This document shows positions 36,101-62,763 of a stretch of DNA of 64,000 nt, one piece after another. How positions within the stretch are numbered: the first letter of the stretch is position 1; each line of letters begins with the position of its first letter. The translations under genes were made by a program, and so were the position numbers. The DNA is from a virus. The stretch spans positions 19,428-83,427 of IMG/VR virus record IMGVR_UViG_3300020442_002364; one strand, written 5' to 3'. The notes below the pieces were generated by a model, which was not told the origin of the DNA, did not search any database, and worked only from the letters and a program-made list of their open reading frames with translations.

Positions 36101-36799
36101 TCAGCAGAAAGAGTGAAAGTTCAATCTAAAGGTATCAGAATACATACCTTTCTTAAAATATGCTGAATGGAACAATGCTCCCTCATAGATGTGCAGTCTG
36201 TTGAACTTACGTGGAAGGAAGTGATACATTTCATATCGCTCGTCCCCATCAAATCCCTCAAACTCAACTAGTTGTCTATACAGATGCTCATTCTCAGGAA
36301 GAATGTCAGCATACCTCTCTTTCCTGTAGATACTAGGATTTCTGAATACTGCTTCTTCTCCAGTATCCCTTACACGGTAGAATGCAGTACCATCTTTGTC
36401 AGTGATCTCCTCATCATGATTCAGACAATAGTTAAATGCCATATGCATCGTGTCTGAATGAGGATAAAGAGATCTCTTCAAACATTTTGTCTTGCTGTTA
36501 ATTACAGAAACGTTCCAAGAGAACTGTGCATCATAAATGCCATAGTGCTCCTCTAGAACAAGTCTCTGATATCTTGTGATAGAATCAAATGTATATTCTA
36601 ACCACTGCTGCCACCCTGGGTAGAAACTACGTGATCTCTCTAGTGGATGACCAGAGCACCAGTCTCTCATCTCCTCAGGATATCTGAAAACATTGTCAAT
36701 GGTAATTACTCTGCTCTTCCATTGACCAATCTCAACTACATTCACATCCGCCTCTTTGTTAATCTCAAAGAGAGCAGTGTTAGCAAATTTCAAATGCAT
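36101..36799 (-). CDS. 2OG-Fe(II) oxygenase-like protein (DUF6445-type)
   Basis: IDNVFRYPE; YPG; PHSD (HxD); GTAFY; FNRLHIYEGALFHS; R near the C-terminus. Confidence 0.8.
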   Translation of the reverse strand: MHLKFANTALFEINKEADVNVVEIGQWKSRVITIDNVFRYPEEMRDWCSGHPLERSRSFYPGWQQWLEYTFDSITRYQRLVLEEHYGIYDAQFSWNVSVINSKTKCLKRSLYPHSDTMHMAFNYCLNHDEEITDKDGTAFYRVRDTGEEAVFRNPSIYRKERYADILPENEHLYRQLVEFEGFDGDERYEMYHFLPRKFNRLHIYEGALFHSAYFKKGMYSDTFRLNFHSFC

Positions 36800-37251
36800 A
36801 CTGTACCTACGAGTCCCTCGGGTAATCCTGTAATATTAATTATACCATCTTTTACTTCTTTGTCCAAGTTACCTCCGATGGTTAACTTGTCACGTTTTAT
36901 TTTTGCTTCCTTTGCAGTCCACAACTCATAGAACTTTTGTTTGTCAGATGTGATCTCTGAGATACTAAAAAATCTACGAGAAATATTTTCAAAGGGGCGG
37001 TCTCTCATAACCTCGATGTCTATGCCGATGGGCATGGATGCTACCGCAACTGCAACGAAGTCGCCGCTGTCGGATTTGTTCCAATGTACAGTGGCAGGTT
37101 TTTTGCAACTCAATTTACCCTCCAAGAAATCTGCGATGCAAGCTCGGATGATCTTGGAATGACTGATCTGGGGCGACTCGAAAAGGTATACAAGAAATTT
37201 TTCACCCAAAAAAATTTCTGAAATAGGGATCCTAAGTTTTTCAACGAACAT
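36790..37251 (-). CDS. 4'-phosphopantetheinyl transferase (compact Sfp-like)
   Basis: HWNKSDSGDFVAVAV (FNxSHS-equivalent), IGIDIE, RRFF, FYELWTAKEAKIK are the canonical PPTase motifs. Confidence 0.88.
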   Translation of the reverse strand: MFVEKLRIPISEIFLGEKFLVYLFESPQISHSKIIRACIADFLEGKLSCKKPATVHWNKSDSGDFVAVAVASMPIGIDIEVMRDRPFENISRRFFSISEITSDKQKFYELWTAKEAKIKRDKLTIGGNLDKEVKDGIINITGLPEGLVGTVCI

Positions 37252-37310
37252 GATAGTACGGACGCGAATGCAAGACTTTATAGATTAGCTCTTTAGGTAC
37301 CATATTAACA

Positions 37311-37353
37311 CGGGCTACGCCCCAACGCAACGGGGGCGGGGGCGACTGCCCCT
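37311..37353. terminator. GC-rich multi-hairpin element at the end of the early region
   Basis: CGCCCC-N9-GGGGCG and GGGGC-GACT-GCCCC inverted repeats just after the stop at 37352; no clear U-tract. Confidence 0.45.
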
Positions 37354-37582
37354 AGTCCTCCCAGAAGGTGGGCAGTGCCTCTACTGCCTCGTCGTGGTAG
37401 AGTTCGGCATTCTGCCCAGCGATGGCAAAGGAGGGCGATCCGATCGGATGCTCAGCGCTACCGTTATTCAGACACCACACGGTGCGGCGTGTCTTCAGAT
37501 CGGTGCTCATGCTGTAGACGGTGTAAGGGCGGATGTTCATGGATTCAGGCGTAGCGGTTAGCAATGGCGTTGGTGTTTGCAT
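37352..37582 (-). CDS. Early hypothetical protein
   Basis: ORF track; downstream member of an early operon. Confidence 0.6.
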   Translation of the reverse strand: MQTPTPLLTATPESMNIRPYTVYSMSTDLKTRRTVWCLNNGSAEHPIGSPSFAIAGQNAELYHDEAVEALPTFWED

Positions 37583-37763
37583 CAGAGCGACACCAGCGGT
37601 AAGGGTTGCCCTTGGGGTTGTTGGGCACTGCCCAGATCATGCACTCTTCACCCCATGCCTTAGCGATGCGGTAGGCGTGGTTGATGTCGGTTGCCCAGTC
37701 GCACCCGTGAGGGTCAAAGTTGGACCATGTGGAGGGTTGGACGGCGAAGGTGTGGGTGAGCAT
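37545..37763 (-). CDS. Early hypothetical protein (72 aa)
   Basis: ORF directly downstream of a palindrome-box promoter (-10 at 37786-37791). Confidence 0.7.
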   Translation of the reverse strand: MLTHTFAVQPSTWSNFDPHGCDWATDINHAYRIAKAWGEECMIWAVPNNPKGNPYRWCRSDANTNAIANRYA

Positions 37764-37799
37764 GTCTCTCTGTGTTGTTGAACTAATTATAGCGGATGC

Positions 37800-38075
37800 T
37801 CAGCGGCACCAGCGGTCGCCGTAGACAGTTCCCCAACCGTCACGCTGAGCACGGCGGCGGTCGTAGTCTTCCGCTGTGAAGTGATCATCAAAATCACCCT
37901 CATCGGTGACGCCCCGCACCATGTCCCCAAAGGTCACGGTTTCGTATTCAGCGGCACGGCGGCAGGTTGCCCGCTCCTGCCTCTCCTGCTCTAGGACCTG
38001 TAGAGCAATGCGGGAGAGTTCAGGAGAGGTGGCGTAGATGCCGTTGGAATCGAATTTCATGGGTTGTTTGTTCAT
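37800..38075 (-). CDS. Early hypothetical protein
   Basis: ORF track; downstream of a boxed promoter (-10 at 38082-38087). Confidence 0.65.
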   Translation of the reverse strand: MNKQPMKFDSNGIYATSPELSRIALQVLEQERQERATCRRAAEYETVTFGDMVRGVTDEGDFDDHFTAEDYDRRRAQRDGWGTVYGDRWCR

Positions 38076-38089
38076 GCTCTTATTATAGG

Positions 38090-38407
38090 TCAGTTGAACA
38101 CGTAACCTGACTCGAAGGGGACAGTTTGGTTATTGTCCATGATGTACCAAGCGAAGTCTTTTTGAAATACGCCGTCGGTCATGCCGTTGCAGAACTCATT
38201 GATCAAAGCGTTCAAACGGGACTTGGTGGTGTTAGACTGCCAACCGCCGTCAAAGATACGCATCCAGTTGTCTGTCACTTCTGCGATCTTGTTGCCGTGG
38301 AGATGGACGGTTGACACGTCGCCGCATGTGGTAACGGTGGTGTTGCCTGATGACCAGTTCTTGCCTGCGTTGATAGCGGCGTTCATTTGGGATTCGATCT
38401 TACGCAT
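38090..38407 (-). CDS. Conserved phage early protein (MRKIESQMNAAI...)
   Basis: LHGNKIA..., GGWQSNTTKSRLNAL, VFQKDFAWY; boxed promoter upstream. Confidence 0.75.
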   Translation of the reverse strand: MRKIESQMNAAINAGKNWSSGNTTVTTCGDVSTVHLHGNKIAEVTDNWMRIFDGGWQSNTTKSRLNALINEFCNGMTDGVFQKDFAWYIMDNNQTVPFESGYVFN

Positions 38408-38447
38408 GATGTAGAGGGGTGATTGGTTGATGTCTTAATTATAGCGG

Positions 38448-38675
38448 TCAGAGGGTGGGGCGGCGACATCCAGTGTGCCAGTTTACCCACTGTCCTAATG
38501 ACCTGTCACCAGACAGCAGAAGCGCTACGATGTCACGCTTGCGGGTCTTGTAGGTATACTCGACAAGGGGACCTTTGAACCAGCGAACTTTAAACGTGCC
38601 AGTGAGCGGGTTAACCTTGAGAGTCCAGACCGATTGAGAGACCGAGGGCGAGCAGGTGTTGATGCTGATCATGTG
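38448..38675 (-). CDS. Early hypothetical protein
   Basis: ORF track 38448..38714; the internal start MISINTCS is more plausible (start approximate). Confidence 0.55.
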   Translation of the reverse strand, partial: HMISINTCSPSVSQSVWTLKVNPLTGTFKVRWFKGPLVEYTYKTRKRDIVALLLSGDRSLGQWVNWHTGCRRPTL

Positions 38676-38789
38676 GTGATGTCGTTGCTGATATTGTACC
38701 ATGAGAGGGGTCACCCCTCAAGGATCATCAGGAGGATGAGAAAAAGGGCGGCAATGCCCTTTAAGATTTTCTTAGTGATGAGAAGGTGC

Positions 38790-38981
38790 TCAGAAAGGGT
38801 TGGTCCAGTTGTTATACTGGTGGTCGCTGATCTCGCGGCACTTGCAAAGCATATCTGTGAAGTTGTTCCACTCTTCACGCTTGGCGATCACGTCACCACG
38901 GAGGGCAGGATTCTGCATTGTAGCGACTTTCCAGTTGTAACGGAATTGCTCAAGAACTTGTGCTTTGGTGTAATGGCGCAT
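38790..38981 (-). CDS. Early hypothetical protein (63 aa)
   Basis: D..AKREEWNNFTDMLCK..IS..QY.NW.NPF motif; boxed promoter upstream. Confidence 0.7.
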   Translation of the reverse strand: MRHYTKAQVLEQFRYNWKVATMQNPALRGDVIAKREEWNNFTDMLCKCREISDHQYNNWTNPF

Positions 38982-39058
38982 GTGGTTTGTGTAACTGTTT
39001 ATATTATAGGCACAGGGTCAACGGGAATGCGACCAAGGTTGTGCCACTATGTCAACTG

Positions 39059-39217
39059 TCATAAGCAGGCGTCTTCAAAACGTTCCCGTGCGATCCACTC
39101 GCAGTGTTCACGTAAAGCGTCTTCTGACATGATGGACGCCATGCCTGATTTTTGCATGTTTGCCATCTCCTCTTCAAAGAAAGATAACAGCATGTCTTCA
39201 TGATGTAATGAACTCAT
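39059..39217 (-). CDS. Early hypothetical protein (52 aa, MSSLHHEDMLLSFFEEE...)
   Basis: Translated by hand; TAAATG coupling to the upstream ORF. Confidence 0.6.
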   Translation of the reverse strand: MSSLHHEDMLLSFFEEEMANMQKSGMASIMSEDALREHCEWIARERFEDACL

Positions 39218-39370
39218 TTAGTCGTAGGGAAAGAATGATGAACAGGTTGAAGATGTGGTGTAGGGGATCTCATAATCCTCGCTAAACATCTCGTAGTAGA
39301 ATTGACTGAAGATGGCGAAATCGTCTGGGGTTTCGCCATTCCAGATCTTAAGGATTTCAGTGTAGTTCAT
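39218..39370 (-). CDS. Early hypothetical protein (50 aa, MNYTEILKIWNGETPDDF...)
   Basis: Translated by hand; ATGA overlap with the upstream ORF. Confidence 0.6.
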   Translation of the reverse strand: MNYTEILKIWNGETPDDFAIFSQFYYEMFSEDYEIPYTTSSTCSSFFPYD

Positions 39371-39555
39371 TGGTCTGCAAACATTGCTTCGTGAGCATCA
39401 AGAACGAAATCTATGATCTCGTCTGTAGCACTGCAACTGAATCTGTCACAGAACCAATCAAGGGACATCTCGGCGGACCATTGCGTTTCGAGCATGAATG
39501 CCTGCAGTTCGAGGAGGTTTTCGTCGTTGATGACGTGGTTGATGTTTTGTCTCAT
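39367..39555 (-). CDS. Early hypothetical protein (62 aa)
   Basis: ORF track; boxed promoter with -10 at 39562-39567. Confidence 0.65.
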   Translation of the reverse strand: MRQNINHVINDENLLELQAFMLETQWSAEMSLDWFCDRFSCSATDEIIDFVLDAHEAMFADQ

Positions 39556-39577
39556 GTGCTTATTATAGGGTATGGGG

Positions 39578-39826
39578 TCAGCAGTTCAACCCAGGTTGTG
39601 CCACTACTGCAACTGGACCATAGATGTGGTTCATCAGATCCCTGACGCGCTCACGGTCTACGCTGTCACCGTCGCCCCAATCCCAATGATCCATTGCATC
39701 ATTGCATCTGTCAAGATAAAGTAGAAGTGCATAAGAAATTTGCTCCTTAGTTCTGTTTTGTGAGTACATGCCACCTGTCCCATAATAATCGAACACGTAG
39801 TTGATGAATTCTTTAAAGTCTTTCAT
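39578..39826 (-). CDS. Early hypothetical protein (82 aa)
   Basis: FINYVFDYYG..G.Y, GDSVDRERVRD motif; AGGAGG RBS. Confidence 0.7.
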   Translation of the reverse strand: MKDFKEFINYVFDYYGTGGMYSQNRTKEQISYALLLYLDRCNDAMDHWDWGDGDSVDRERVRDLMNHIYGPVAVVAQPGLNC

Positions 39827-39984
39827 TTAATCCTCCTGTTGAATTCTTTGGATTCCTGTGGTGTCATGCCACAGAAGTAGTTTAATAGATTACCCTCGTA
39901 ATCGTCCCAAGGTAGATCATCTAAATCAGATCCAATCTTGATGGTGTCCTTTGCACAATGCGCTTTGTATTCTTGTGGTGTCAT
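39823..39984 (-). CDS. Early hypothetical protein (53 aa, MTPQEYKAHCAKD...)
   Basis: Translated by hand; fills the gap and overlaps the next gene by ATGA. Confidence 0.55.
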   Translation of the reverse strand: MTPQEYKAHCAKDTIKIGSDLDDLPWDDYEGNLLNYFCGMTPQESKEFNRRIK

Positions 39985-39993
39985 TGTTAATAC

Positions 39994-40179
39994 CTACGCG
40001 AAAAGTGGACGCATGTAGTTCTTAAATTCTTCGCATCTATGAGCGGCGAGAATTTGCATTTCTTTTTCAGTGATCACGATATCATATCCGTCTGCTTTCA
40101 TCTCGTCGTAACATGCTTTAGTGATACCTTTGTCTGTGATATCGTATTCATGAAGTGCAACGTGTTTGAAAAATGACAT
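39994..40179 (-). CDS. Early hypothetical protein (61 aa)
   Basis: ORF track; promoter TTGCAT-N17-TATATT (40204-40232) plus box. Confidence 0.7.
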   Translation of the reverse strand: MSFFKHVALHEYDITDKGITKACYDEMKADGYDIVITEKEMQILAAHRCEEFKNYMRPLFA

Positions 40180-40277
40180 AGATTAAATGTGATGTACATT
40201 ATTAATATAGAGGGTAGGTAACACGAATGCAAGCAATAGTGGACAGTTTATATAACTGGCACAGGCGGCTGACCCGA

Positions 40278-40304
40278 TTCTCAATAAGACATCACTATTG
40301 AGAA
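40278..40304. repeat. Perfect inverted repeat TTCTCAATA-N9-TATTGAGAA
   Basis: Read directly; lies between two palindromic promoter boxes. Confidence 0.85.
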
Positions 40305-40372
40305 ACCCCCATGCCAGTTGAGAAAGTGGCACAGGGGTGGTTGCATCTATTCAGTTTTTCTGTAAATGTGGA

Positions 40373-40546
40373 TCAGTCGGAAATGTATCCGACAAAGTAA
40401 CACAAACCCTCTGCTACAAATTTGTTAGCGAGACCCTGCAATTCAGGGTAATCATAGATCAAATCAGTGTCAAGTAGATGTTGGATCATTGCGACCTCAT
40501 CGTCCACTGAGTTGATACATGTATTGGGATGTACATTACTCTTCAT
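40373..40546 (-). CDS. Hypothetical protein (MKSNVHPNTC...)
   Basis: 3' part of ORF-track 40373..40621; start chosen to minimise overlap. Confidence 0.5.
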   Translation of the reverse strand: MKSNVHPNTCINSVDDEVAMIQHLLDTDLIYDYPELQGLANKFVAEGLCYFVGYISD

Positions 40547-40715
40547 AGTACACATCGTCCTCGTAGTCAAAATTAACGTTCTTGATACGCTTAGAGTTGG
40601 ATACATTATCCATGTATCCACTCTGAGCTAAATCGATGTATTGGGCGTATTCTTTTTTTCTTTGAGAGAATGAGGAATTCCGTCCTTTTCCGCGATTATT
40701 CCAAGTTTTCGCCAT
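40536..40715 (-). CDS. Hypothetical protein (MAKTWNNRGKG...; basic N-terminus, acidic C-terminus)
   Basis: Part of ORF-track 40536..40802. Confidence 0.55.
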   Translation of the reverse strand: MAKTWNNRGKGRNSSFSQRKKEYAQYIDLAQSGYMDNVSNSKRIKNVNFDYEDDVYYEE

Positions 40716-40746
40716 TTTCTTCAGAATTGAAAGTTTTCTTAGATAT

Positions 40747-41001
40747 TCAAGGTTTTTGAATAAGATCACCCTTTTTGAGTGATTCATTATAAAACTTTCC
40801 AAGTGAGAAACTTTCGGGGTTTTTCACAAGTTCTTCAAGTTTACTCAGTAGTGTCTTATTTGCAGGTTTCCAAGTGAATTCGTATTTTTTGTCATTTCCT
40901 ACAAAGTTTACGAAAACAGTGGAACCTTGCACAGAAATCCGATCGATGGCAGAACTGACTGAAGTAAAGTCGAAGTCGTATTTTTTGGAGGTTCTGGGCA
41001 T
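40747..41001 (-). CDS. Hypothetical protein, KTSC-like (84 aa)
   Basis: VSSAIDRISV...V.F....Y.F...SLGKFYN resembles the KTSC pattern; boxed promoter upstream. Confidence 0.6.
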   Translation of the reverse strand: MPRTSKKYDFDFTSVSSAIDRISVQGSTVFVNFVGNDKKYEFTWKPANKTLLSKLEELVKNPESFSLGKFYNESLKKGDLIQKP

Positions 41002-41092
41002 TTGTTTCCCTTGTGTACATTAATAATTATATGAGCAACACTTTCAGAATGGGGGACAACCTGTGCCAGTTCTCAAAGTGTCACTGAGGTGC

Positions 41093-41121
41093 TTGACTTT
41101 TCTGTGGTTGCGGTCTAAGAC
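41093..41121 (+). promoter_or_regulatory. Plus-strand sigma70-like promoter TTGACT-N17-TAAGAC sharing the 41062 box
   Basis: -10 starts 30 nt after the box end, the same geometry as the minus-strand promoters. Confidence 0.5.
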
Positions 41122-41125
41122 AGCA

Positions 41126-41192
41126 GAGGTACTCCAGAGACCCTCGGAGATACCTCCACAGTCGCCGTCTAGCTCACGCAAACCTATTTTTT
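41126..41192 (+). ncRNA. Candidate small non-coding RNA or origin primer transcript
   Basis: Hairpin GAGGTA-CTCC-A-GAG-ACC-CTC-GGAG-A-TACCTC (41126-41156), then a T-run at 41187-41192; no ORF. Confidence 0.35.
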
Positions 41193-41206
41193 AACACATT
41201 TTTTAA

Positions 41207-41257
41207 TTCTCAATAAAAACACGTTATTGATTCTCAATAATGCGCGTTTCTTGAGAA
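41207..41257. repeat. Two overlapping copies of TTCTCAATA-N9-T(A/C)TTGA(GAA)
   Basis: Half-sites at 41207, 41225, 41231 and 41249 in an AT-rich intergenic stretch. Confidence 0.8.
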
Positions 41258-41296
41258 ATGTGTCAAAAACAAGTCAAAACGAGTCCAAAATGGGTC

Positions 41297-41482
41297 TCAA
41301 ATGTGCGCTTTTGACGTTGTACCGTACTGAGAGTACAGTTTTGCATCGTTAATCGCCTGTTGATCACTGCGGAAAGGTCCGTAGGACATATCAACACCAT
41401 CATAGTTCCAATAGATACCTTTCCTCTTCTTATTGAGATGAATGGTGAGTTCTTTGTTCAATGCATTGATGATTGCTTTCAT
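41297..41482 (-). CDS. Hypothetical protein (61 aa)
   Basis: ORF track; ATGA coupling. Confidence 0.6.
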   Translation of the reverse strand: MKAIINALNKELTIHLNKKRKGIYWNYDGVDMSYGPFRSDQQAINDAKLYSQYGTTSKAHI

Positions 41483-41643
41483 GAGAATACAGGAATGAGT
41501 TCAGTTGAGATGACCTTAGGGTCGTGTTGTTTAATCTGACGTTCGTAATGTGCTGCGTCGTCTAGGGAAAAGAATGTCAACCTCTTTGTAGAGGTCACGT
41601 TGTTCTTCTTTCTCCTCTTCAAAATAACGGCATACTTCATCAT
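41479..41643 (-). CDS. Hypothetical protein (MMKYAVILKRRKK...)
   Basis: 3' part of ORF-track 41479..41682. Confidence 0.55.
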   Translation of the reverse strand: MMKYAVILKRRKKNNVTSTKRLTFFSLDDAAHYERQIKQHDPKVISTELIPVFS

Positions 41644-41651
41644 AGAAACGT

Positions 41652-41840
41652 TTACTTTGTGATGGGGTGGATGTGTCCCCAATCAGATGGGAATACAATA
41701 GGGAGTGCTCCTGTGACATTATGTTTGAGTGTGATGTAAGACTCCTGTGCGAAGTTCACTGTCCATTGTGATCCTTCGTATTCAACTTGATCTCCCTTTG
41801 TGAAGGGCAAGTTTGTTCCAGAGTTGTCGCTCGTACTCAT
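41652..41840 (-). CDS. Hypothetical protein (62 aa, SH3-like beta pattern)
   Basis: FTKGDQVEYEG..WTVNF...YITL. Confidence 0.6.
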   Translation of the reverse strand: MSTSDNSGTNLPFTKGDQVEYEGSQWTVNFAQESYITLKHNVTGALPIVFPSDWGHIHPITK

Positions 41841-41957
41841 AGAATACTTTCCATAGGTGGACTGTACAGTGTTGAGTGTAGTCGAGTTCTTCTGCTGTGT
41901 CTATACACTCTCGAATACGAGATAGTTGTGAATAGAGCAGTTTTGTCTCTGTATCCA

Positions 41958-42149
41958 TCATACCACATCTACTCGTAAAATGCTACCCAATTGACATTGT
42001 TCCATCCATGCAGCACGTAACGATTCCCAATCATAATACGTTACTGCTTTCTTATGTTTGTAGATCAGTTTGTACTTGTGTCTGTCGTATGGTTTATCAG
42101 ACGTACAAGTGAAATACCTTGGGTCGTTTTTAGGAATGAGTTGGGTCAT
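41958..42149 (-). CDS. Conserved cyanophage hypothetical protein (63 aa)
   Basis: LIPKNDPRYFTCTSDKPYDRHKYKL. Confidence 0.7.
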   Translation of the reverse strand: MTQLIPKNDPRYFTCTSDKPYDRHKYKLIYKHKKAVTYYDWESLRAAWMEQCQLGSILRVDVV

Positions 42150-42441
42150 TGATTTGCATAGCGGAGTATGGAGTTGTTTGAGACAAGTCTACCACAGTAC
42201 CGACTCTTTTGGGGTTGATGGGAGCATGGTATTGTCCTTTCTTGGTGTCAAAGAATCCCCAGATGGATTTTGGGGTATCACTGGTATAAGAAAAGACGCC
42301 ATGATTACAGATCCAGATAGCAGAAACGTTACGCTTGAACTGTCTAACCTCATAAGAATAACCCTTTGGTGGACGATGGAAATCGAGGGGAAGATGTGTC
42401 ATGATAAAAGAAGAGGGGAGGTCTCGCGTCAGGAGACACAA
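42130..42441 (-). CDS. Conserved cyanophage early protein
   Basis: HRPPKGYSYEV..FKRNVSAIW...SIWGFF...APIN.KRVG...TTPYSAMQ; true start probably the internal Met. Confidence 0.75.
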   Translation of the reverse strand: MCLLTRDLPSSFIMTHLPLDFHRPPKGYSYEVRQFKRNVSAIWICNHGVFSYTSDTPKSIWGFFDTKKGQYHAPINPKRVGTVVDLSQTTPYSAMQINDPTHS

Positions 42442-42453
42442 TTACATAGACCC

Positions 42454-42690
42454 TCAGCAGTAGACAGGAGAGTAATCCTTACCAGTATACTCTTCAGTGT
42501 TGAAGTCACTAACAGTAGCACCGTTAGCGATGTAACCTTCAACATCATACTTCATGCCGATACGATCGCGGGTGGAGAAAGAAGTCAGTTCAGTCTCAGC
42601 ACCTTTGTGCCAGATGACACGCTTGACGAAACGCTTGCCAGTGCCGACGGGATAGAAGTCGATCTGGGTGGCGGAGGTGTGGAGTCGCAT
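42454..42690 (-). CDS. Early hypothetical protein (MRLHTSATQIDFYPVG...)
   Basis: Part of ORF-track 42454..42771, downstream of the -10 at 42712-42717. Confidence 0.65.
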   Translation of the reverse strand: MRLHTSATQIDFYPVGTGKRFVKRVIWHKGAETELTSFSTRDRIGMKYDVEGYIANGATVSDFNTEEYTGKDYSPVYC

Positions 42691-42733
42691 GGGTGTTTTG
42701 CTGATGAACATAGTATAAGGTAGACAGGAGCGA

Positions 42734-42949
42734 TCAGACGCTACCCTGTGCCACCTGTTCAAATGGCACACGAGTGACAGTCAGACGACGCCATCCACGC
42801 ACTTCTCTGATAGCATTGACCACTTGGTTCACCACGTTGTTATGCTGACGGTCGAGACCACGCATGGACTTGGTAGCACGACGAGTGATGTAGAAGATGC
42901 TGGTGGTCAGGTCTTCGTTGCAGATCTGGATCTCGTAAGCGTTGGGCAT
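42734..42949 (-). CDS. Early hypothetical protein (MPNAYEIQ...)
   Basis: Part of ORF-track 42734..42985, downstream of the -10 at 42974-42979. Confidence 0.65.
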   Translation of the reverse strand: MPNAYEIQICNEDLTTSIFYITRRATKSMRGLDRQHNNVVNQVVNAIREVRGWRRLTVTRVPFEQVAQGSV

Positions 42950-43020
42950 GGGTGGTTCCCTGTCGATGTATGTAATATAGAGCATTATGGGGGCGGTTCA
43001 ATGCCCCCTGTGCCACTTGT

Positions 43021-43461
43021 TCAAGCGTCCTTGAAGATGCCGTCGGTGACAGAACCCTCAGGGATAGCGACTTCCTTTACTCTGTTCTCAGAACGAAGCG
43101 CATGGCAGGTCCACTCGCCATCATCATAGTAGTAGGTATACTCTGCATCATACTGACTGTCAGCAGCACAGAGGAACTCATTCAGGTTCTCGTACAGGTT
43201 AGGTGCATTTTGCACATAGGACTCACCACGCATGGTATAGTACAGCGGACCAGACTCAGGCAGCGTTTCGTTGTTCCATCCTGCATTGGTATAGACGCAG
43301 GACATATCACCACCGTCGATCAGATCACTGACCTTAGCGTCAGTGTTGTACACGTCACGCAGCACGCGACCGTTGTACTGAGGATAACCGTCGTAGTGGC
43401 AGTAGACACCGAGGATGCTACCGTCTTTGAGTCGTTTGCCGATGAGAGAGCGAGTGCCCAT
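43021..43461 (-). CDS. Conserved phage protein (MGTRS...YCHYDGYP family)
   Basis: MGTRSLIG, GVYCHYDGYP, LIDGGDMS, EYTYYY..GEW. Confidence 0.8.
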   Translation of the reverse strand: MGTRSLIGKRLKDGSILGVYCHYDGYPQYNGRVLRDVYNTDAKVSDLIDGGDMSCVYTNAGWNNETLPESGPLYYTMRGESYVQNAPNLYENLNEFLCAADSQYDAEYTYYYDDGEWTCHALRSENRVKEVAIPEGSVTDGIFKDA

Positions 43462-43509
43462 GTGTGAGTTGTGTTCCTTTGACTCTTTTAATATACACGG
43501 TTTTGGGGG

Positions 43510-43803
43510 TCAGGGTAGTGACCCTGTGCCAGTCTTGCAACTGGTTTTGATCCATGTCCGTGGAGCGATTCGTGATACAATCCCTTTCATCTCATATCCT
43601 TTCATAGTATACTCCACAACTGTGGTGCCTTTACTATGATTAGGACGAGTTGCATACACCTCTTTGAAATAGTGTTGATCCATGTCACCAACAACGATCT
43701 GTGTCTTGACAGACAAGTCATCAGCAGTAAATACGGTCAACTCAGATGATCCATCGACAATAGATCGCACGATGTTCTTGATCCTTACTGTAACACCAGT
43801 CAT
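43510..43803 (-). CDS. Hypothetical protein (97 aa)
   Basis: ORF track; ATGA coupling. Confidence 0.6.
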   Translation of the reverse strand: MTGVTVRIKNIVRSIVDGSSELTVFTADDLSVKTQIVVGDMDQHYFKEVYATRPNHSKGTTVVEYTMKGYEMKGIVSRIAPRTWIKTSCKTGTGSLP

Positions 43804-44051
43804 TCTGACAGAGGGGATTCACGTTTGCAGATGTTATTCTTGCCAGACAACACGTCATCGACATAGTTGTTGACTTTATCAGATACTTTCCACGATCCAC
43901 CTACACCGCCGTCCATATTGACAACGATGTCATCACCTACCTTGTCTTCAGGATACCATGTGCCAAACTTCTCTGGTGCATACCAGAAGTCTTCCCAATC
44001 GTTTGCTGTTGCTTCGGTGATGTTGCTCATATTAGAATGTGGTGCTTTCAT
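43800..44051 (-). CDS. Hypothetical protein
   Basis: ORF track; boxed promoter upstream (-10 at 44053-44058); start may be internal. Confidence 0.6.
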   Translation of the reverse strand: MKAPHSNMSNITEATANDWEDFWYAPEKFGTWYPEDKVGDDIVVNMDGGVGGSWKVSDKVNNYVDDVLSGKNNICKRESPLSE

Positions 44052-44066
44052 AAGTATACAGTCCAG

Positions 44067-44351
44067 TCAGAGCTCACAGTGGTCATGTAGACACTTCCCT
44101 GACTGGCATAGGGTACGTTCCCTTTTGATCTGGTTCCAGGCAGCATTGAAGGTCTTTCTACTACCTATCTGCCGCCCATGGTGGATCATACACCATCCCT
44201 TTGCACTCTTACGTGATCTTGTTAGAAAGGGGAAAATTGCCCACATACCTTTGTCAATCAATACTGGTTGTGGTTCTAGATAATCATCAAGTAGACTTGG
44301 GTTGCTTTTGTTGTCGTTCTTCATGCGTATACCATGGATGTTTATATTCAC
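44067..44351 (-). CDS. Hypothetical protein
   Basis: ORF track; start probably MKNDNK. Confidence 0.6.
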   Translation of the reverse strand: MNINIHGIRMKNDNKSNPSLLDDYLEPQPVLIDKGMWAIFPFLTRSRKSAKGWCMIHHGRQIGSRKTFNAAWNQIKRERTLCQSGKCLHDHCEL

Positions 44352-44535
44352 GTTTGTTGTGAATAGTCAACGTTGGATCAGTGCCCCAGTCGTTCATAGC
44401 ACGAATGCCACCAAACGATAATTCTAGATCTTTACCCCATCCTAGTTCTTTGACAAACTCATTTGCGATGCTGATCTGCAAATTCCCGCTGCCATCGTAG
44501 TGATAGCGGAAGTAATCTTGAATGTTTGGTTTCAT
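44287..44535 (-). CDS. Hypothetical protein (82 aa)
   Basis: ORF track. Confidence 0.6.
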   Translation of the reverse strand: MKPNIQDYFRYHYDGSGNLQISIANEFVKELGWGKDLELSFGGIRAMNDWGTDPTLTIHNKREYKHPWYTHEERQQKQPKST

Positions 44536-44804
44536 TTCTTCTTCGCTTTCTCTTGCTGTTGTTTACGGGCACGCTCTATTCTAGCATAATCGAGAGCATT
44601 AGTGCCACCTGCATATGTATCATTGAAACGATCACAAACGAACTTAAGTGACGGATCTTCTTTACGAACTGGTTGGTGTCCAGCACTACGCATTTGTCTC
44701 CACGTCATTGTATCATCGTGAGGACGTTGTGCGTGATAGAAAGGTGCAAGACAGGCAGCGTCATGCACGTTGAGAGTCATTCTGTCGGGTAGTGATCCTT
44801 GCAT
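44532..44804 (-). CDS. Hypothetical protein (MQGSLPDRMTL...)
   Basis: Part of ORF-track 44532..44837; AGGA RBS; -10 TATTAT at 44826-44831 plus box. Confidence 0.65.
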   Translation of the reverse strand: MQGSLPDRMTLNVHDAACLAPFYHAQRPHDDTMTWRQMRSAGHQPVRKEDPSLKFVCDRFNDTYAGGTNALDYARIERARKQQQEKAKKK

Positions 44805-44879
44805 TGCTTTCCTGTAGCAACACACATAATAAAACACCCCAGCGTTCGCTGAGGTGTGCCTGTGACACTAATCAAAGTG

Positions 44880-45053
44880 TCAGTCAAGGATGTTCTTGCA
44901 TATCCGTTTACAGGTATGTTGGTTTAACGAATCGCATTCAATTAAACACTCATAATAATCATTAAGTTTTTGATTCTCTACCTCCAATTCTTCAATAGTG
45001 CCTTCAAAATGTCTCCATTCATCTAGCTGTGATCGTGATAGTAGGTTGTGCAT
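44880..45053 (-). CDS. Small Cys-rich protein (57 aa, MHNLLSRSQLDEWRHFE...DYYECLIECD...CKRICKNILD)
   Basis: Translated by hand; GGAGAGG RBS; CxxxC...CxxxC. Confidence 0.75.
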   Translation of the reverse strand: MHNLLSRSQLDEWRHFEGTIEELEVENQKLNDYYECLIECDSLNQHTCKRICKNILD

Positions 45054-45193
45054 GTATCCTCTCCACAGTTAATTGCCATAACAAATGAGGGGTCAGGTTG
45101 CATCTATTTTATCTCCAACTCTATGTTTCTATTTAAACACAAATTACCTAAAATGTCAAAGTCGATACAGAATACTTCATGAAATTTGCTTCA

Positions 45194-45700
45194 TTAAGAT
45201 ATCTGAATATTTCCTGAGATTATTATACGTTCATGGTCACACTCATGTGGAGGAACATAGTGTAGGTCTGTAGAACTAAAGAATGCCAATACTCCTGTGC
45301 TCGGTGTAATTAATGCTGCTGGTGGCATCCATGGACGTTCTGGATCAGGAAACACCAGTGGAGCACAATCAGGACAGGCATCAATGTACCAAATAAAAGA
45401 TTGTACGTATTGTGGGTCTGGGTGCATATGAATTACAGCATAATCACCACGTTTGTATACACCACCCCACATTTCACATATTTCCACACATCCATGGCGA
45501 TCAATCAGCAAGTCATTTGCCATAACATTGATCTGTTCTGTGATTTCCCAGAACGCTTCGTCCTGATGCATGGTCCAGTGGGTCACGTCACATTTAAGAC
45601 TTGACCCTCTATCATTCTTATCACCAACGTTCTTAATGTAGTCAGCGATCCAGAAGTCTGGTTCTAAGTATTTGACCTGTGGGTTTACTCTGCGTGGCAT
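45194..45700 (-). CDS. 2OG-Fe(II) oxygenase family protein (HxH type)
   Basis: WGGVY..GDYAVIHMHP, SFIWYI, LAFFSS..HYVPPH, RIIISGN. Confidence 0.85.
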   Translation of the reverse strand: MPRRVNPQVKYLEPDFWIADYIKNVGDKNDRGSSLKCDVTHWTMHQDEAFWEITEQINVMANDLLIDRHGCVEICEMWGGVYKRGDYAVIHMHPDPQYVQSFIWYIDACPDCAPLVFPDPERPWMPPAALITPSTGVLAFFSSTDLHYVPPHECDHERIIISGNIQIS

Positions 45701-46122
45701 GTATACTCCTCATATAGTTTCACTTGCATGTCAAATGCTTCTACTTCCCATGGTTCATCCTCATAGGATATGTCAGAAGAAATGATCTCTCCCATCCATT
45801 TATTAGTGAACTTAGGAGCAAATCTCTGCTGGTGTCGATTGCGAAGACGTTGCTCAACGTGCATTAGTTCATGGAACAATGTGATGAGATACTGTTTAGC
45901 ATCTAGACGATTGTCCAGTTCAATAAGAAACTCCCTAGGAAAAGACAAGGATGATGTTGTTGTGCAAGCACCATCCATGTGTTCATGCCAGCATCGACGA
46001 TCCTTCACCTCAATGTGAAAACTGAGGCGGTTGAGGTTACGATGTTTGGTAAACCACTCGATTGCATCCCTAACGATGCGCTTTCTGTTGCGATAACCAC
46101 TAAACGTGACGTGACAAGACAT
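45685..46122 (-). CDS. Zincin-like metallopeptidase-domain protein
   Basis: TLFHELMHVEQ (HExxH) and YEDEPWEVEA. Confidence 0.8.
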   Translation of the reverse strand: MSCHVTFSGYRNRKRIVRDAIEWFTKHRNLNRLSFHIEVKDRRCWHEHMDGACTTTSSLSFPREFLIELDNRLDAKQYLITLFHELMHVEQRLRNRHQQRFAPKFTNKWMGEIISSDISYEDEPWEVEAFDMQVKLYEEYTCHAE

Positions 46123-46168
46123 AACCAGTGCAGGAACCAGACGAACGAGATTACAAAAGCAAGTTTCA

Positions 46169-46526: not shown

Positions 46527-46551
46527 GTGCGTTTTGTTGATTACTCTGTAA

Positions 46552-48349: not shown

Positions 48350-48388
48350 AATAAGTCTGAGAGGGGTCTAGGAGCGCCCAGAGGGCAC

Positions 48389-59124: not shown

Positions 59125-59152
59125 TCTACACCCACAAAAATTCGTTCAAGTT

Positions 59153-59160
59153 TATTTATA
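59153..59160 (-). promoter_or_regulatory. T4-type late promoter TATAAATA for the fibre operon
   Basis: Exact match, overlapping the cpeT stop. Confidence 0.8.
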
Positions 59161-59560
59161 ACCTCTTGTGAAAGAGGAAAAATCCTTCTGACGATTGCCA
59201 GTAGCCTTTATCCCAAGAATGGTATTGATCTGCGTACAATTTTACAGAACTTTCTAGGTCATGATCCTTCCACTTACACCCAGGACTAGATTTACCTACA
59301 AAATGATCTTCCAGTTTCATAAAAACAAGATCACATGCAGGATTTTCTACAACGATTACATCCTGATCCTGTCTTACTGTTACAATTTGTTCTCGATACG
59401 GTACTTGTGAATAGTTGTATCGAGAACTGGTCTTAAATTTTCTGTCAGAAATTTTTTCGTGAACAATATAAATGTGTGACCACTTTGTCGGATTGCCTGA
59501 CGCCTGTTCCCAGTTGTCAAACTTTCCCTCAAACCATTCACAAAAAGTATCTATCATCAA
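59156..59560 (-). CDS. cpeT: CpeT/CpcT-like phycobiliprotein lyase
   Basis: WFEGKFDNWEQA..NP..WSHI, PYREQ, F.G...PGC, SWDKG; short phage-type version. Confidence 0.8.
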   Translation of the reverse strand: MMIDTFCEWFEGKFDNWEQASGNPTKWSHIYIVHEKISDRKFKTSSRYNYSQVPYREQIVTVRQDQDVIVVENPACDLVFMKLEDHFVGKSSPGCKWKDHDLESSVKLYADQYHSWDKGYWQSSEGFFLFHKRL

Positions 59561-59853
59561 TCCAATCCAATAAGGTCCTCAAGTTGAGCAGGTCGGTTCC
59601 CCAACATAAGTTCCTTTAGAGTCTCTGCCTTTGTCAAAAACTTACGATGGTAATCAATCCACGATTGAACCTCTGCTAACATTTCCTCATAACACTCGCG
59701 AGAGTCACACTTCTCATCAGTAAGGTAATCACCGATAGCATCACCCATACGATCCTTGCGTTGTGCTTCGTAAGTTTTCAACTGCTTGTCATCATAAAAA
59801 TTTTTTTCCCGATCAAGAACCTGTTTGATCTTTTCTTTGCTATCTGCGAGCAT
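59557..59853 (-). CDS. Conserved cyanophage hypothetical protein (98 aa)
   Basis: QRKDRMGDAIGDYLTDE...YEE.L.EV..W..YH. Confidence 0.7.
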   Translation of the reverse strand: MLADSKEKIKQVLDREKNFYDDKQLKTYEAQRKDRMGDAIGDYLTDEKCDSRECYEEMLAEVQSWIDYHRKFLTKAETLKELMLGNRPAQLEDLIGLD

Positions 59854-59875
59854 GATGGAACTCCATAGTCAAATA

Positions 59876-59904
59876 ATTATAGCATTAAAAAAGAGAGGTC
59901 GCAA
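59876..59904 (-). promoter_or_regulatory. sigma70-like promoter TTGCGA-N17-TATAAT
   Basis: -35 at 59899-59904 lies in the terminator loop; -10 at 59876-59881. Confidence 0.65.
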
Positions 59905-59910
59905 CCTCTC
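59887..59910 (-). terminator. Rho-independent terminator after tRNA-Asn
   Basis: GAGAGG-TTGCGA-CCTCTC followed by TTTTTT. Confidence 0.8.
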
Positions 59911-59913
59911 TGA

Positions 59914-59986
59914 CTCCTCCACCTGGACTCGAACCAGGGACAGGGTGATTAACAGTCACCTGCTCTACCAACTGAGCTATAGAGGA
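59914..59986 (-). tRNA. trnN: tRNA-Asn (GTT)
   Basis: TCCTCTATAGCTCAGTTGGTAGAGC...CTGTTAA...GGTTCGAGTCC...GGAGGAG cloverleaf. Confidence 0.95.
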
Positions 59987-59993
59987 ATGGGTG

Positions 59994-60173
59994 TTACCCA
60001 AACTCTTCGTTTCTACGACAATCGAGATGATAGAGAACTTCAGATCTCCACTCCATTAGTTCGTTGTAACACTCTTGGTTGTGAGCACATTCGCGAAGAC
60101 TGTGATCTGGTTTCAGCACACTTTCATAAAATAGTCCCAGAGCATCGCGTCTCTTTTGTTGCTTATCGGTCAT
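59994..60173 (-). CDS. Conserved cyanophage hypothetical protein (59 aa, MTDKQQKRRDALGLFYESVLKPD...)
   Basis: Translated by hand; AAGGAG RBS; ATGA overlap with the talC stop. Confidence 0.7.
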   Translation of the reverse strand: MTDKQQKRRDALGLFYESVLKPDHSLRECAHNQECYNELMEWRSEVLYHLDCRRNEEFG

Positions 60174-60823
60174 TTGACTCCTTGGTTTACTGCTGCCCAG
60201 TCTTTATCGAAGATTGCAAGTCCTTCACGAGTAAGGACATGCGAATACATCTTCTCGAATACAGCAGGGGGCATCGTCACGATACTAGCACCATTGTAGT
60301 ATGAGCGAGTAACCTTATATACATCTCTAATAGAAGCAGAAAGGATTTGTGTTGCTACTCCTTGAGATTGATAGACCCCTGCAATTGATCGAACGACTTC
60401 TACTCCCGCGACAGAATTATCATCACAACGACCAACGAAAGGTGATACGTATGTAGCACCCGCCTTGGCAGCAAGAATAGCTTGTGCAGCAGAGAAGATC
60501 AAAGTAACATTGACTTTGATACCCAAGTCTGACAATTTCTTACATGCAAGTAAACCGTCTGGAGTACATGGAACCTTGACAGTACAGACTTCTCCAAATT
60601 TCTGAGAAAGACGGAGACCTTCGTCAAGCATGTCAGTATAACTACCAACAACTTCCATGCTGATATCGGGGACGCCAATATCTTTAATTTCCTGATAGAC
60701 TTCTTCTGGATCGCGTCCACTCTTCATAATAAGAGTTGGGTTGGTAGTGATACCATCAATCAGACCAGTAGCAAAGTGCTTACGGATCAATGCAGTGTCG
60801 GCAGTGTCTAGAAAAATTTTCAT
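60170..60823 (-). CDS. talC: Transaldolase TalC (auxiliary metabolic gene)
   Basis: MKIFLDTAD, GITTNPTL, VKVP, NVTLIFS, YVSPFVGR, ASIR. Confidence 0.97.
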   Translation of the reverse strand: MKIFLDTADTALIRKHFATGLIDGITTNPTLIMKSGRDPEEVYQEIKDIGVPDISMEVVGSYTDMLDEGLRLSQKFGEVCTVKVPCTPDGLLACKKLSDLGIKVNVTLIFSAAQAILAAKAGATYVSPFVGRCDDNSVAGVEVVRSIAGVYQSQGVATQILSASIRDVYKVTRSYYNGASIVTMPPAVFEKMYSHVLTREGLAIFDKDWAAVNQGVK

Positions 60824-60840
60824 TACAGAATTTTTTAAGA

Positions 60841-60847
60841 TATTTAT
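60841..60847 (-). promoter_or_regulatory. Late-type promoter ATAAATA upstream of talC
   Basis: 17 nt upstream of the ATG. Confidence 0.6.
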
Positions 60848-60860
60848 TGGGCGAACCCAA

Positions 60861-60934
60861 AGCCACTCAACGGACTTGAACCGTTGACCTACTGTTTACA
60901 AAACAGTTGCTCTATCCAGCTGAGCTAGAGTGGC
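60861..60934 (-). tRNA. trnT: tRNA-Thr (TGT)
   Basis: GCCACTCTAGCTCAGCTGGATAGAGC..ACTGT-TTTGTAA-ACAGT..GGTTCAAGTCC..GAGTGGCT. Confidence 0.95.
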
Positions 60935-61139
60935 GTTGCTTTTCCTCTTTGCTGAGTTTGAAGTACAGTTTATAGTATCTCTTTTTTATTTCTTCAAGAG
61001 TATCCATGTCTTCTTTGAATCCCATGTACTTGGTGAGTTGATAAGACCCTTCAAGTTCACTGATTAATCTTAGCACATTGACCGAAGATCTGTCAAGACC
61101 ACCAAAGGTAAATTTAGTGTGGGAGTTCTGAGAGTTCAT
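60912..61139 (-). CDS. Conserved cyanophage hypothetical protein (75 aa)
   Basis: FGGLDR..VNVLRLISELEGSYQL.KYMGF; 3' end overlaps tRNA-Thr. Confidence 0.7.
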   Translation of the reverse strand: MNSQNSHTKFTFGGLDRSSVNVLRLISELEGSYQLTKYMGFKEDMDTLEEIKKRYYKLYFKLSKEEKQRHSSSAG

Positions 61140-61401
61140 CTAAGTCAAGTTCATCAAGTAGAGGATGGAATCCTTCTTCAATCAAGTAAGAGGATCCATG
61201 CCAGATATCTTCTGCTGAAAATATACGAGACTCTCTTGCTTTTTTAATTACTTTATCTGGTAGTGGAAATTCTGCAATATCATCCCAAGTAAAAGGAATG
61301 CCCTGTACAAAGAACATTTTAACTAGACCCTCCCCTTTTAGATAGCGATATTCCCAATACACCTTCAGGACTGTTTCTTCCATAGAAAATCGAACGGACA
61401 T
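61114..61401 (-). CDS. Hypothetical protein (~90 aa)
   Basis: MFFVQGIPFTWD...SSYLIEEGFHPL. Confidence 0.7.
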   Translation of the reverse strand: MSVRFSMEETVLKVYWEYRYLKGEGLVKMFFVQGIPFTWDDIAEFPLPDKVIKKARESRIFSAEDIWHGSSYLIEEGFHPLLDELDLDELSELPH

Positions 61402-62078
61402 TTACTATCTTCTTTCTTTAGTCTATCTTTGATTAGACTCCATGATGCAAATTTGTCAAATTCCTTCAACCTAGCGTTCTGTGCATACTGATCGAGAATG
61501 TCTTGAGGTGGTGCTTTTTTCTTGAGTGAGAAAGTGCTATCCGACTTCTGAGAGTATAATCTCAACATGAACAGTGGAGTGCCTTTAGGGATCCACAAAT
61601 TAGTATCTAGATCTAAAAGTTTAAATCCAAACCCAAGAGGACGTTGCCATACTGATAATGGATATGTTCCTGGGATAGATTCTAATCCGTATCTGGAGAG
61701 TAAAGGATGAGGTATTTGTTCTACCCAAACGTCCTTATCTCTTGTCCATAAGGCGTGACCATAATTAAATTGTATCTCTGGTAGTTCTCCATCTAACCAA
61801 TTAGGAGCTAGATTGAAAAACTCATCAAATATAGGTTGTGCTAAATTTGTATCTAGATATTTATCGGTACTTTTGTAGAGCATACCGAGATCAAATGGTT
61901 GGTAGAATATCCAAGTATTCTTACCCCACTCTGACCATGCAGGACATTTTGCATGAGAGTAATTACGATCATACTTAGAACCAAACTTAGTTGGTTCTGG
62001 AGTGTAGTCTGGTGGTAGATATTCTTTTTTAAAATCTTCTTGCTCCCCGATTGTAGGGAGATAATACACATTCTTCAT
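61365..62078 (-). CDS. Hypothetical protein (237 aa), possible dUTPase-like fold
   Basis: KCPAW near the N-terminus, IPG, IPKGTPL; C-terminal KCPF. Confidence 0.65.
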   Translation of the reverse strand: MKNVYYLPTIGEQEDFKKEYLPPDYTPEPTKFGSKYDRNYSHAKCPAWSEWGKNTWIFYQPFDLGMLYKSTDKYLDTNLAQPIFDEFFNLAPNWLDGELPEIQFNYGHALWTRDKDVWVEQIPHPLLSRYGLESIPGTYPLSVWQRPLGFGFKLLDLDTNLWIPKGTPLFMLRLYSQKSDSTFSLKKKAPPQDILDQYAQNARLKEFDKFASWSLIKDRLKKEDSKCPFDFLWKKQS

Positions 62079-62080
62079 AG

Positions 62081-62164
62081 TAGGAGCGGGGGGACTTGAA
62101 CCCCCACGAGATAATTCTCAACAGATTTTAAGTCTGGTGCGTCTACCGATTCCGCCACGCTCCC
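62081..62164 (-). tRNA. trnL: tRNA-Leu (TAA)
   Basis: GGGAGCGTGGCGGAATCGGTAGACGC..CTTAAAA..long variable arm..GGTTCAAGTCC. Confidence 0.95.
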
Positions 62165-62168
62165 GACT

Positions 62169-62321
62169 TCACCCTTCCCAAGTAGGAGGATGAAACTGAC
62201 AATATTCGTTAAAGGTGATTTTCATCTCCTTATTCGTCAGACCCGCATTCTTCGCTGCTTTCGGTAGGTTCCACTTCGCTGTGAACAGCATCTCCATCGA
62301 TTCTCTTGTTTCTGGTCTCAT
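62169..62321 (-). CDS. Small conserved cyanophage protein (50 aa, [41 protein letters not shown]...)
   Basis: Translated by hand; GGAGG RBS at 62325-62329; overlaps the ACP ORF tail by 92 nt in another frame. Confidence 0.7.
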
Positions 62322-62763
62322 CTTCCTCCAATGCTTTTTCGATTTCTGATTCTAGATCAGGTTGAGTTTGTCCAATCTTAGGTGCCCCGATAGGACTCCC
62401 AGGAGCAGGACGCCTAATATACTTCGATTTGTCAATCTTGCGTGGTTTGCCTTTCTCTTTCTTACACTTCTTAATAACATCAATGGCATCACCTACAGTG
62501 ACAATATCCATTGAGTATTCATCTGCAATCTCAATGCTAAAACACTCCTCAAGGAACATAACCAATTCAACAAGATCAAGAGAATCTGCATCCAGATCAT
62601 CTACGAACTTTGTTTCCATGGTAACAGAGTCCCAATCAAAATCTTCTTTGACCAGTGCCTCTTTAAGTGCCAAGCGTGTTACCTGTAGGAGAACATCATT
62701 GTTCACCTTCTTTGCATTCTTAAGAATGTCTTTAATCTCGTGATAAGTTTTGTTGTATGCCAT
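62230..62763 (-). CDS. acpP: Acyl carrier protein with N- and C-terminal extensions (177 aa)
   Basis: [36 protein letters not shown]...[11 protein letters not shown] is the classic type II ACP signature; attachment Ser codon at 62581-62583. Confidence 0.9.

Follow-up and report, generated by a model that had tools for sequence, protein, structure and literature searches.

A divergent acyl carrier protein and miniature Sfp-type phosphopantetheinyl transferase pair on a metagenomic contig related to Prochlorococcus phages P-HM1 and P-HM2

A 64,000-nucleotide stretch of viral DNA (hereafter the window), taken from the 3' end of an 83-kb IMG/VR contig with an estimated completeness of 46% (IMGVR_UViG_3300020442_002364), encodes on its minus strand a 4'-phosphopantetheinyl transferase (PPTase; 36790–37251) and an acyl carrier protein (ACP; 62230–62763). 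On sequence comparison, these two genes are a divergent member of the ACP/ACPS pair already annotated in cyanomyoviruses (T4-GC457/T4-GC500), and not a new pair. We lean towards the view that they constitute a carrier module, in which the PPTase would arm the ACP in mid infection and host enzymes would then use the armed carrier. A preliminary description of the window had proposed an unusual and orthogonal module of this kind; the identities of the two genes and a probable functional pairing of their products are supported, whereas novelty and orthogonality are not. Both open reading frames (ORFs) were confirmed at the coordinates given above, with the two PPTase motifs, the intact attachment serine of the ACP and the spacing of about 25 kb that had been described. 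The G+C content of both genes (0.41) is that of the window.

A tblastn search of 50,697 phage records matched both the PPTase and the ACP to one and the same set of three phages (P-HM1, P-HM2 and MED4-213), with identities to the orthologues of 52–54% for the ACP and 38–39% for the PPTase. The occurrence of both genes in one cyanomyovirus, which had been presented as unusual, was in fact annotated earlier: Sullivan et al. (2010; PMC3037559) listed "an acyl carrier protein ... and its synthetase (ACPS)" among the genes unique to P-HM1 and P-HM2. A 2023 review counted ACP in 2 of 153 cyanophages and, apart from the 2010 genome paper and the table in that review, we found no paper in the literature joining cyanophage, ACP and PPTase. 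The gene order of the window is collinear with that of P-HM2 (gp5, two small genes, ACP, cpeT, fibres, early block, PPTase, gp25/gp6/gp7), and both genes are therefore best regarded as orthologues inherited from a common ancestor. The T4-GC457 ACP and the T4-GC500 "ACPS" of P-HM1, P-HM2 and MED4-213 (Eurybiavirus) resemble the window pair in their sizes, their motifs and a His-to-Asp change in the PPTase, and they occupy the same two genome positions, in that two small genes separate gp5 from the ACP downstream of it and the PPTase closes the early block, preceding gp25/gp6; the spacing is ~23–25 kb in the window and the P-HM phages alike. However, the window lineage is divergent and known only from this 46%-complete metagenomic contig, its ACP gene has tRNA genes on both sides, with orf237 and talC further downstream, and a gene of the DUF6445 family is inserted behind the PPTase gene. 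The glycine dehydrogenase and TauD genes of P-HM1 were not found in the window contig.

The PPTase, a protein of 153 aa, matches the Pfam family ACPS (PF01648) above its cut-off (33.3 bits against 25; 33.5 bits in the genome search) and also matches phrog_23098, a family of unknown function (E 1e-28). The AlphaFold2 (AF2) model of this protein, built on 35 sequences, is confident (predicted local distance difference test, pLDDT, 87.9; predicted template modelling score, pTM, 0.82), and every significant match obtained with it in Foldseek is a PPTase of the Sfp type (Sfp, AASDHPPT, PptT and PcpS). VIA-align superposed model residues 19–153 on residues 1–206 of Sfp (4MRT; Z 12.4, root-mean-square deviation 3.0, 129 residues aligned), covering both lobes, whereas the AcpS enzymes covered just residues 74–153 (Z 6.7–8.2), that is, the C-terminal lobe. 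Since the Foldseek and VIA-align matches span both lobes of Sfp, the PPTase is, according to its model, a miniature two-lobed (pseudo-dimer) enzyme of the Sfp type (group II), with two thirds of the usual length, and the label "Sfp-like" that it had been given is appropriate. An AcpS-type (group I) identity was considered and rejected, as TIGR00556 scored 26 bits against a cut-off of 45.35, the extra N-terminal lobe was confidently modelled and the protein has 153 aa rather than the ~120 aa of a single lobe. AcpS shares the catalytic half-domain with the phage PPTase, to which the phage enzyme adds the N-terminal lobe on the same chain. The scores obtained with the NCBIfam equivalog models for AusB (45.2 against 225), AcpT (24.6 against 174) and HetI (21.9 against 370) were all below their cut-offs.

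Sfp of Bacillus subtilis (group II; PDB 1QR0 and 4MRT) and the phage PPTase have 30% identity, the two-lobed pseudo-dimeric fold and the catalytic motifs GxDxE and WxxKE(A/S)xxK in common. However, Sfp has 224 aa (228 residues in PDB 1QR0), and in the phage enzyme the N-terminal lobe is reduced to one helix and three strands and ~30 C-terminal residues are gone. The length of the phage PPTase is thus below the ~220–240 aa typical of Sfp-type enzymes; members of the phage clade range from 146 to 166 aa, and the host enzyme has 209 aa. The first motif, GIDIE (37012–37026, minus strand), contains G76, D78 and E80 and provides the acidic metal-binding pair that corresponds to D107/E109 of Sfp, and the second, WTAKEAKIK (36895–36921, minus strand), contains W111, K114, E115 and K119, equivalent to Sfp W147, K150, E151 and K155. 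All seven residues are invariant in 35 phage and bacterial sequences, and the metal-binding acidic residues (D107, E109 and E151 in Sfp) and the catalytic lysine (K155) are present in the PPTase as D78, E80, E115 and K119. The predicted activity, transfer of phosphopantetheine from coenzyme A (CoA) to the serine of a carrier, is probably the one that this protein has.

This type of PPTase appears as a small and well-separated group. A HMMER scan of 1.84 billion representatives (~15 billion proteins) yielded four full-length clusters at 50% identity with E < 1e-30, and ordinary PPTases came after a gap in the scores, near 1e-17. Few viral proteins are PPTases: BFVD gave 3 matches at E ≤ 0.001, including that of the MED4-213 orthologue. 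Profile-based scans were needed for these comparisons, since a word-index search missed the PPTase orthologues of the P-HM phages.

The ACP is, as judged from its sequence, an AcpP-like carrier. The Pfam family PP-binding (PF00550) gave a borderline match (20.5 bits with the protein and 22.4 bits in a six-frame search of the genome, for a cut-off of 20.8), and the matches with phrog_27464 (E 5e-44), with phrog_5934, annotated as "acyl carrier protein" (E 1e-13), with the NCBIfam acyl carrier protein models (E 1e-18 to 8e-20) and, in a profile comparison, with solved ACPs of type II fatty-acid synthase (FAS-II; E 1e-18) were unambiguous. The serine predicted to carry the phosphopantetheine is Ser61 (codon 62581–62583, minus strand), in the sequence ADSLD (62575–62589), which contains the DSL attachment motif. 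In the AF2 model (pLDDT 72.5), an extra N-terminal helix (residues 3–16) precedes a four-helix core (22–37, 61–75, 81–84 and 90–103), and Ser61 opens helix II, as it does in AcpP-type carriers. The tail beyond the last core helix was modelled at low confidence; it is first basic (106–140, charge +4) and then acidic (141–177, charge −10), and the core has a net charge of −13. Ser61 and nearly all of helix II are kept in 17 homologues, as is a motif of 13 protein letters in the tail.

The core of the phage ACP (helices II–IV) is 50% identical to AcpP of Prochlorococcus sp. AG-418-C09, the gene for which adjoins fabF. The two proteins have an identical DSLD site and share D60, S61, D63, E66, E72 and E73, so that every acidic docking residue of helix II is kept. 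However, Phe70 and Cys74 of helix II, which are invariant in 17 phage ACPs, are both replaced with alanine in the Prochlorococcus protein. The latter has 80 aa, whereas the phage ACP has 177 aa, with the extra helix and the tail, and its neighbours are tRNA genes, orf237, talC and cpeT rather than fab genes. From its position near the prosthetic-group site, the conserved cysteine could mean redox control. Other phage ACPs (phrog_5934 and phrog_4154) are likewise stand-alone carriers with the PP-binding fold; the family of the window ACP differs from them in having its own PHROG (phrog_27464), the extra helix and the tail and, in some lineages, a dedicated PPTase. A 50-aa ORF in another frame (62169–62321) shares 92 nt with the 3' end of the ACP gene; an overlap at this end, of 44 nt, is also seen between the ACP gene of P-HM2 and the gene that follows it.

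The two genes have a nested distribution, the PPTase having been observed only with ACP and the ACP also alone. We found 53 PPTase loci and 135 ACP loci in IMG/VR, and the ACP family accounted for 826 clusters at 90% identity in ocean metagenomes. Both of the complete IMG/VR records with a PPTase carry an ACP gene 23–28 kb upstream, and the two genes occur together in all five informative PPTase genomes (these two records, P-HM2, MED4-213 and the window contig). Twelve PPTase contigs of 17–74 kb in which no ACP gene was found are uninformative, as nearly all of them stop short of the site, 25–28 kb upstream, at which the ACP gene would be expected. In the ACP tree, two PPTase-less genomes fell in a subclade of 33 rows, and the window, a 200-kb record and P-HM2 branched elsewhere, the deep branches being weak. 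The independent distribution of the two genes that the preliminary description had considered was thus found on one side only: ACP occurs without PPTase, and PPTase without ACP was never seen. All the carriers are kin, and we therefore regard this pattern as suggestive of a functional link, not as proof of it.

Published data on P-HM2 infecting MED4 provide the timing of expression. PHM2_028–031 (the orf59 homologue, ACP, an unknown gene and cpeT) are middle genes in a block lying between the late gene g5 and late fibre genes, and the ACP (PHM2_029) and the PPTase (PHM2_076) were both assigned to the class "Mid (B)" in the light (Thompson et al. 2016; PMC5082946, S2 Table). This timing favours a metabolic role over one in the virion, and it supports co-expression of the two genes. 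A structural or assembly function close to the baseplate hub is suggested by the location of the ACP gene, which lies two genes downstream of gp5 in 84/84 ACP-bearing loci compared, following gp5, orf90 (in most loci) and orf59. Such a function is very improbable, however, given that in P-HM2 the ACP block, including cpeT, is middle-expressed amid late genes (g5 and the fibre genes), and that the corresponding block of the window also holds talC, cpeT and four tRNA genes; the timing and the content of this island led us to reject it. A sequencing run labelled as RNA contains a contig ~98% identical to positions 36513–37340 of the window, within a type of library that can also hold DNA.

Co-folding of the PPTase with ACP residues 20–105 gave weak support for an interaction, with a score of 0.58 against 0.00 for the best control. 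The mark passed by this pair was reached by 58/80 solved complexes and by 2/110 mismatched pairs; scores at or below 0.60 among those passing were obtained for only 7/80 solved complexes and for both of the mismatches. The runs agreed in at least 96% of the contacts, with a partner pLDDT of at least 81. Sfp–carrier complexes have already been solved, and it is possible that the pass of this model pair may only reflect its likeness to them. The nested distribution, the synteny and co-expression in P-HM2 and this co-folding result all point to the functional link between PPTase and ACP that had been proposed, and we consider it likely that the phage ACP is a substrate of the phage PPTase.

The mechanism that we favour for the carrier module is as follows. 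In mid infection, the PPTase would take 4'-phosphopantetheine from the CoA of the host and attach it to Ser61 of the phage carrier. The resulting holo-ACP, which retains the acidic helix II of the AcpP type, would be loaded and used by the type II fatty-acid and lipid enzymes of the host, and the acyl-carrier pool of the host would thereby be supplemented or redirected at a time when the synthesis of host proteins is shut off. As an optional accessory, the PPTase would ensure that a highly expressed and atypical carrier is armed; in phages lacking this PPTase, the Sfp-type enzyme of the host would do so instead. Searches for AMP-binding, ketosynthase and fatty-acid desaturase genes gave no match in the window contig, in three complete relatives or in one further contig 43% complete; since no phage enzyme handling acyl groups was found, the carrier must use host enzymes or unrecognised phage proteins. 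Two candidate partners, glycine dehydrogenase (GDC-P) and TauD, were rejected, as GDC-P was present only in P-HM1, TauD was present in P-HM1 and in an ACP-only phage, and neither co-varied with the pair. That the cargo consists of host fatty-acyl chains and that the ACP works with the FAS-II and lipid enzymes of the host can be put forward tentatively, and is perhaps a little less probable than the contrary. The description of the module as orthogonal does not agree with a core that is 50% identical to host AcpP and keeps its docking residues, with the presence of a PPTase in the host of ACP-only phages or with the lack of a phage acyl enzyme in the genomes searched.

Several observations weigh against the carrier module as formulated above, and the first of them concern the link between the two genes. 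PPTase and ACP are 25 kb apart, and the phages that carry them are all T4-like cyanophages related to one another, in which both genes occupy orthologous positions, so that co-occurrence is confounded by ancestry. A complete 189-kb phage record (QCLS01000003.1; 189,106 bp) has the ACP and lacks the PPTase, as judged with both the family profile and PF01648. This record is a contig of the single-cell genome of Prochlorococcus sp. AG-418-C09, which suggests that the cell was infected when it was collected and assigns a host to that phage lineage. The host part of the genome encodes its own 209-aa Sfp-type PPTase, with the usual histidine, and the phage PPTase is therefore dispensable. Furthermore, a 77.6-kb contig contains the ACP gene and, 25 kb downstream, a homologue of orf69, with no PPTase before orf69, leaving the syntenic site empty. 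It could be argued from these observations that the two genes are unlinked, the phage PPTase mainly arming host carriers (AcpP or others), the host PPTase arming the phage ACP and the co-occurrence being due to common descent; the location of the genes in different gene blocks, the complete genome with ACP alone in a host with its own PPTase and the relatedness of all carriers would fit. We find this improbable, however, as PPTase was never found without ACP, both genes cluster together by expression in P-HM2, the carriers of the host are already served by a host PPTase and the pair passed the co-folding mark (0.58 against 0.00 for the best control), albeit in a way that may stem from likeness to solved complexes. 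In the AG-418-C09 genome, a 99-aa frame at C7:9334–9477, ~2 kb from the host PPTase gene, has a weak PP-binding match (18.6 bits) and may be a second small carrier protein of the host.

The second set of unfavourable observations concerns the PPTase, which departs from active Sfp enzymes. Instead of the (F/W)N(I/V)SHS motif, the window protein has WNKSDS (37066–37083, minus strand), with Asp61 at the place of His90 of Sfp. The phage clade as a whole has W(N/S)KSD(S/T), with Asp in 20/21 sequences and Asn in 1/21, whereas a histidine occupies this position of the SHS sequence in 13/14 bacterial homologues, in Sfp and in the Prochlorococcus host enzyme, the bacterial relatives and the host enzyme having (F)N(I/V)SHS. 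In addition, the helix bearing K28 and K31 in Sfp is absent from the phage PPTase in the alignment of the two proteins. We take His90 and K28/K31 to be CoA-binding residues of Sfp. A remodelled CoA pocket (Asp for His, without the K28/K31 helix) could indicate a private carrier system and not a copy of the ACP chemistry of the host. In such a system, the PPTase would prefer the phage ACP, or would use an unusual donor, and the ACP, with its extra helix, its invariant Phe70 and Cys74 and its bipolar tail, would carry a non-fatty-acyl cargo or act as a redox-sensitive brake on host lipid synthesis; we rate this possibility as low.

The third set concerns the use of the ACP by host enzymes. The curated AcpP cut-offs were narrowly missed (NF002148: 70.5 against 71; TIGR00517: 66.6 against 70.45), and the extra helix, the 70-aa charged tail and Phe70/Cys74 could impair the use of this carrier by FAS enzymes. 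We also infer that additional fatty-acid synthesis would compete with nucleotide synthesis for NADPH, and the biochemical roles of both families are predictions from sequence and models. An ACP that binds host FAS or ACP-dependent enzymes unproductively, as a decoy or regulator, would throttle lipid synthesis and save NADPH, ATP and acetyl-CoA for phage DNA synthesis, in analogy with phage CP12, which throttles the Calvin cycle. The acidic residues of helix II, which are as in host AcpP, the invariant and phage-specific changes to Phe70 and Cys74, the conserved basic and acidic tail, the location of the ACP gene beside talC, a pentose-phosphate gene, its middle-class expression and the lack of an identified phage enzyme using acyl-ACP are all compatible with such a function. 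However, a decoy acting by binding alone would hardly require the invariant attachment serine or a dedicated PPTase kept in several lineages, and the inhibition itself is our reading of these features; we therefore regard a decoy as rather unlikely.

The carrier module, if it operates as suggested, would belong to a rarely considered class of viral auxiliary metabolism, carrier-protein chemistry. Its ACP family is abundant in ocean metagenomes and is found in phages of Prochlorococcus. Prochlorococcus is the most abundant phototroph. An answer to the question whether this ACP feeds or blocks the lipid synthesis of the host would add a branch to the re-routing of carbon and reducing power by cyanophages. 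Sfp is widely used for protein labelling, and a 153-aa enzyme of this type, if active, could serve for minimal labelling tools.

The ACP gene of the window is part of an island of metabolic and tRNA genes (59156–62852, minus strand; identified by a tRNA gene search, PF00923 and PF06206), in which it lies directly between tRNA-Gly and tRNA-Leu and is followed by orf237, tRNA-Thr, talC (60170–60823, minus strand), tRNA-Asn and cpeT (59156–59557, minus strand). The tRNA genes are Asn-GTT (59912–59987), Thr-TGT (60861–60934), Leu-TAA (62080–62164) and Gly-TCC (62780–62852). The conserved gene upstream of the ACP, orf59 (62856–63035, minus strand), is a homologue of T4-GC29; its stop abuts the ACP start in many loci, and in the window tRNA-Gly intervenes. 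The frequent downstream neighbour, orf237 (61365–62078, minus strand; phrog_17480, no known family), follows the ACP in 60/84 loci and had no match in Pfam or NCBIfam. Neither gene was retained as an ACP-specific partner: orf59 is widespread in cyanomyoviruses without ACP, and orf237 is present, at other places, in a few Synechococcus phages that lack ACP; S-T4, S-H38, S-SM2, S-SCSM1 and S-CAM3 have distant copies of orf237 at other places.

The third gene considered in the window (36101–36799, minus strand) belongs to DUF6445 (PF20043, E 1e-19) and has an HxD...H pattern suggesting a 2-oxoglutarate (2OG) oxygenase. Position 36101, from which the range of the preliminary description starts, belongs to this gene and not to the PPTase gene. 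The DUF6445 gene overlaps the PPTase stop by 10 nt, and the junction is real, as single contigs from three marine studies bridge it. A conserved coupling of the two genes was nevertheless rejected, since, among 58 PPTase loci, DUF6445 was matched only in the window contig, and relatives with a 95% identical PPTase lack it; it looks like a recent lineage-specific insertion.

These neighbours bear on a further reading, in which the ACP is a dedicated carrier outside fatty-acid synthesis. The holo form would hold a particular acyl or aminoacyl group, destined for lipoylation, for the modification of lipids or surfaces or for tailoring by the many 2OG oxygenases of the phage, and unrecognised phage proteins such as orf237 would load this carrier and use it. 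The architecture of the ACP is atypical and conserved, its operon-like neighbours orf59 and orf237 are constant, and 2OG-oxygenase-like genes, including the DUF6445 gene overlapping the PPTase, are present in the window. However, the DUF6445 adjacency is unique to the window contig, orf59 and orf237 also occur in phages lacking ACP, the occurrence of GDC-P and TauD does not follow that of the pair, and no adenylating enzyme or ketosynthase was found in the genomes searched, all of which makes a carrier of this kind hard to favour and, in our view, distinctly improbable.

The region upstream of the PPTase gene has a composition of its own. The block of small ORFs at 37300–48900 has a G+C content of 0.45, against 0.41 for the window and 0.38 for the baseplate genes. 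Metagenome contigs break and vary heavily in this region, where numerous joints and loose ends fall between 37260 and 38470.

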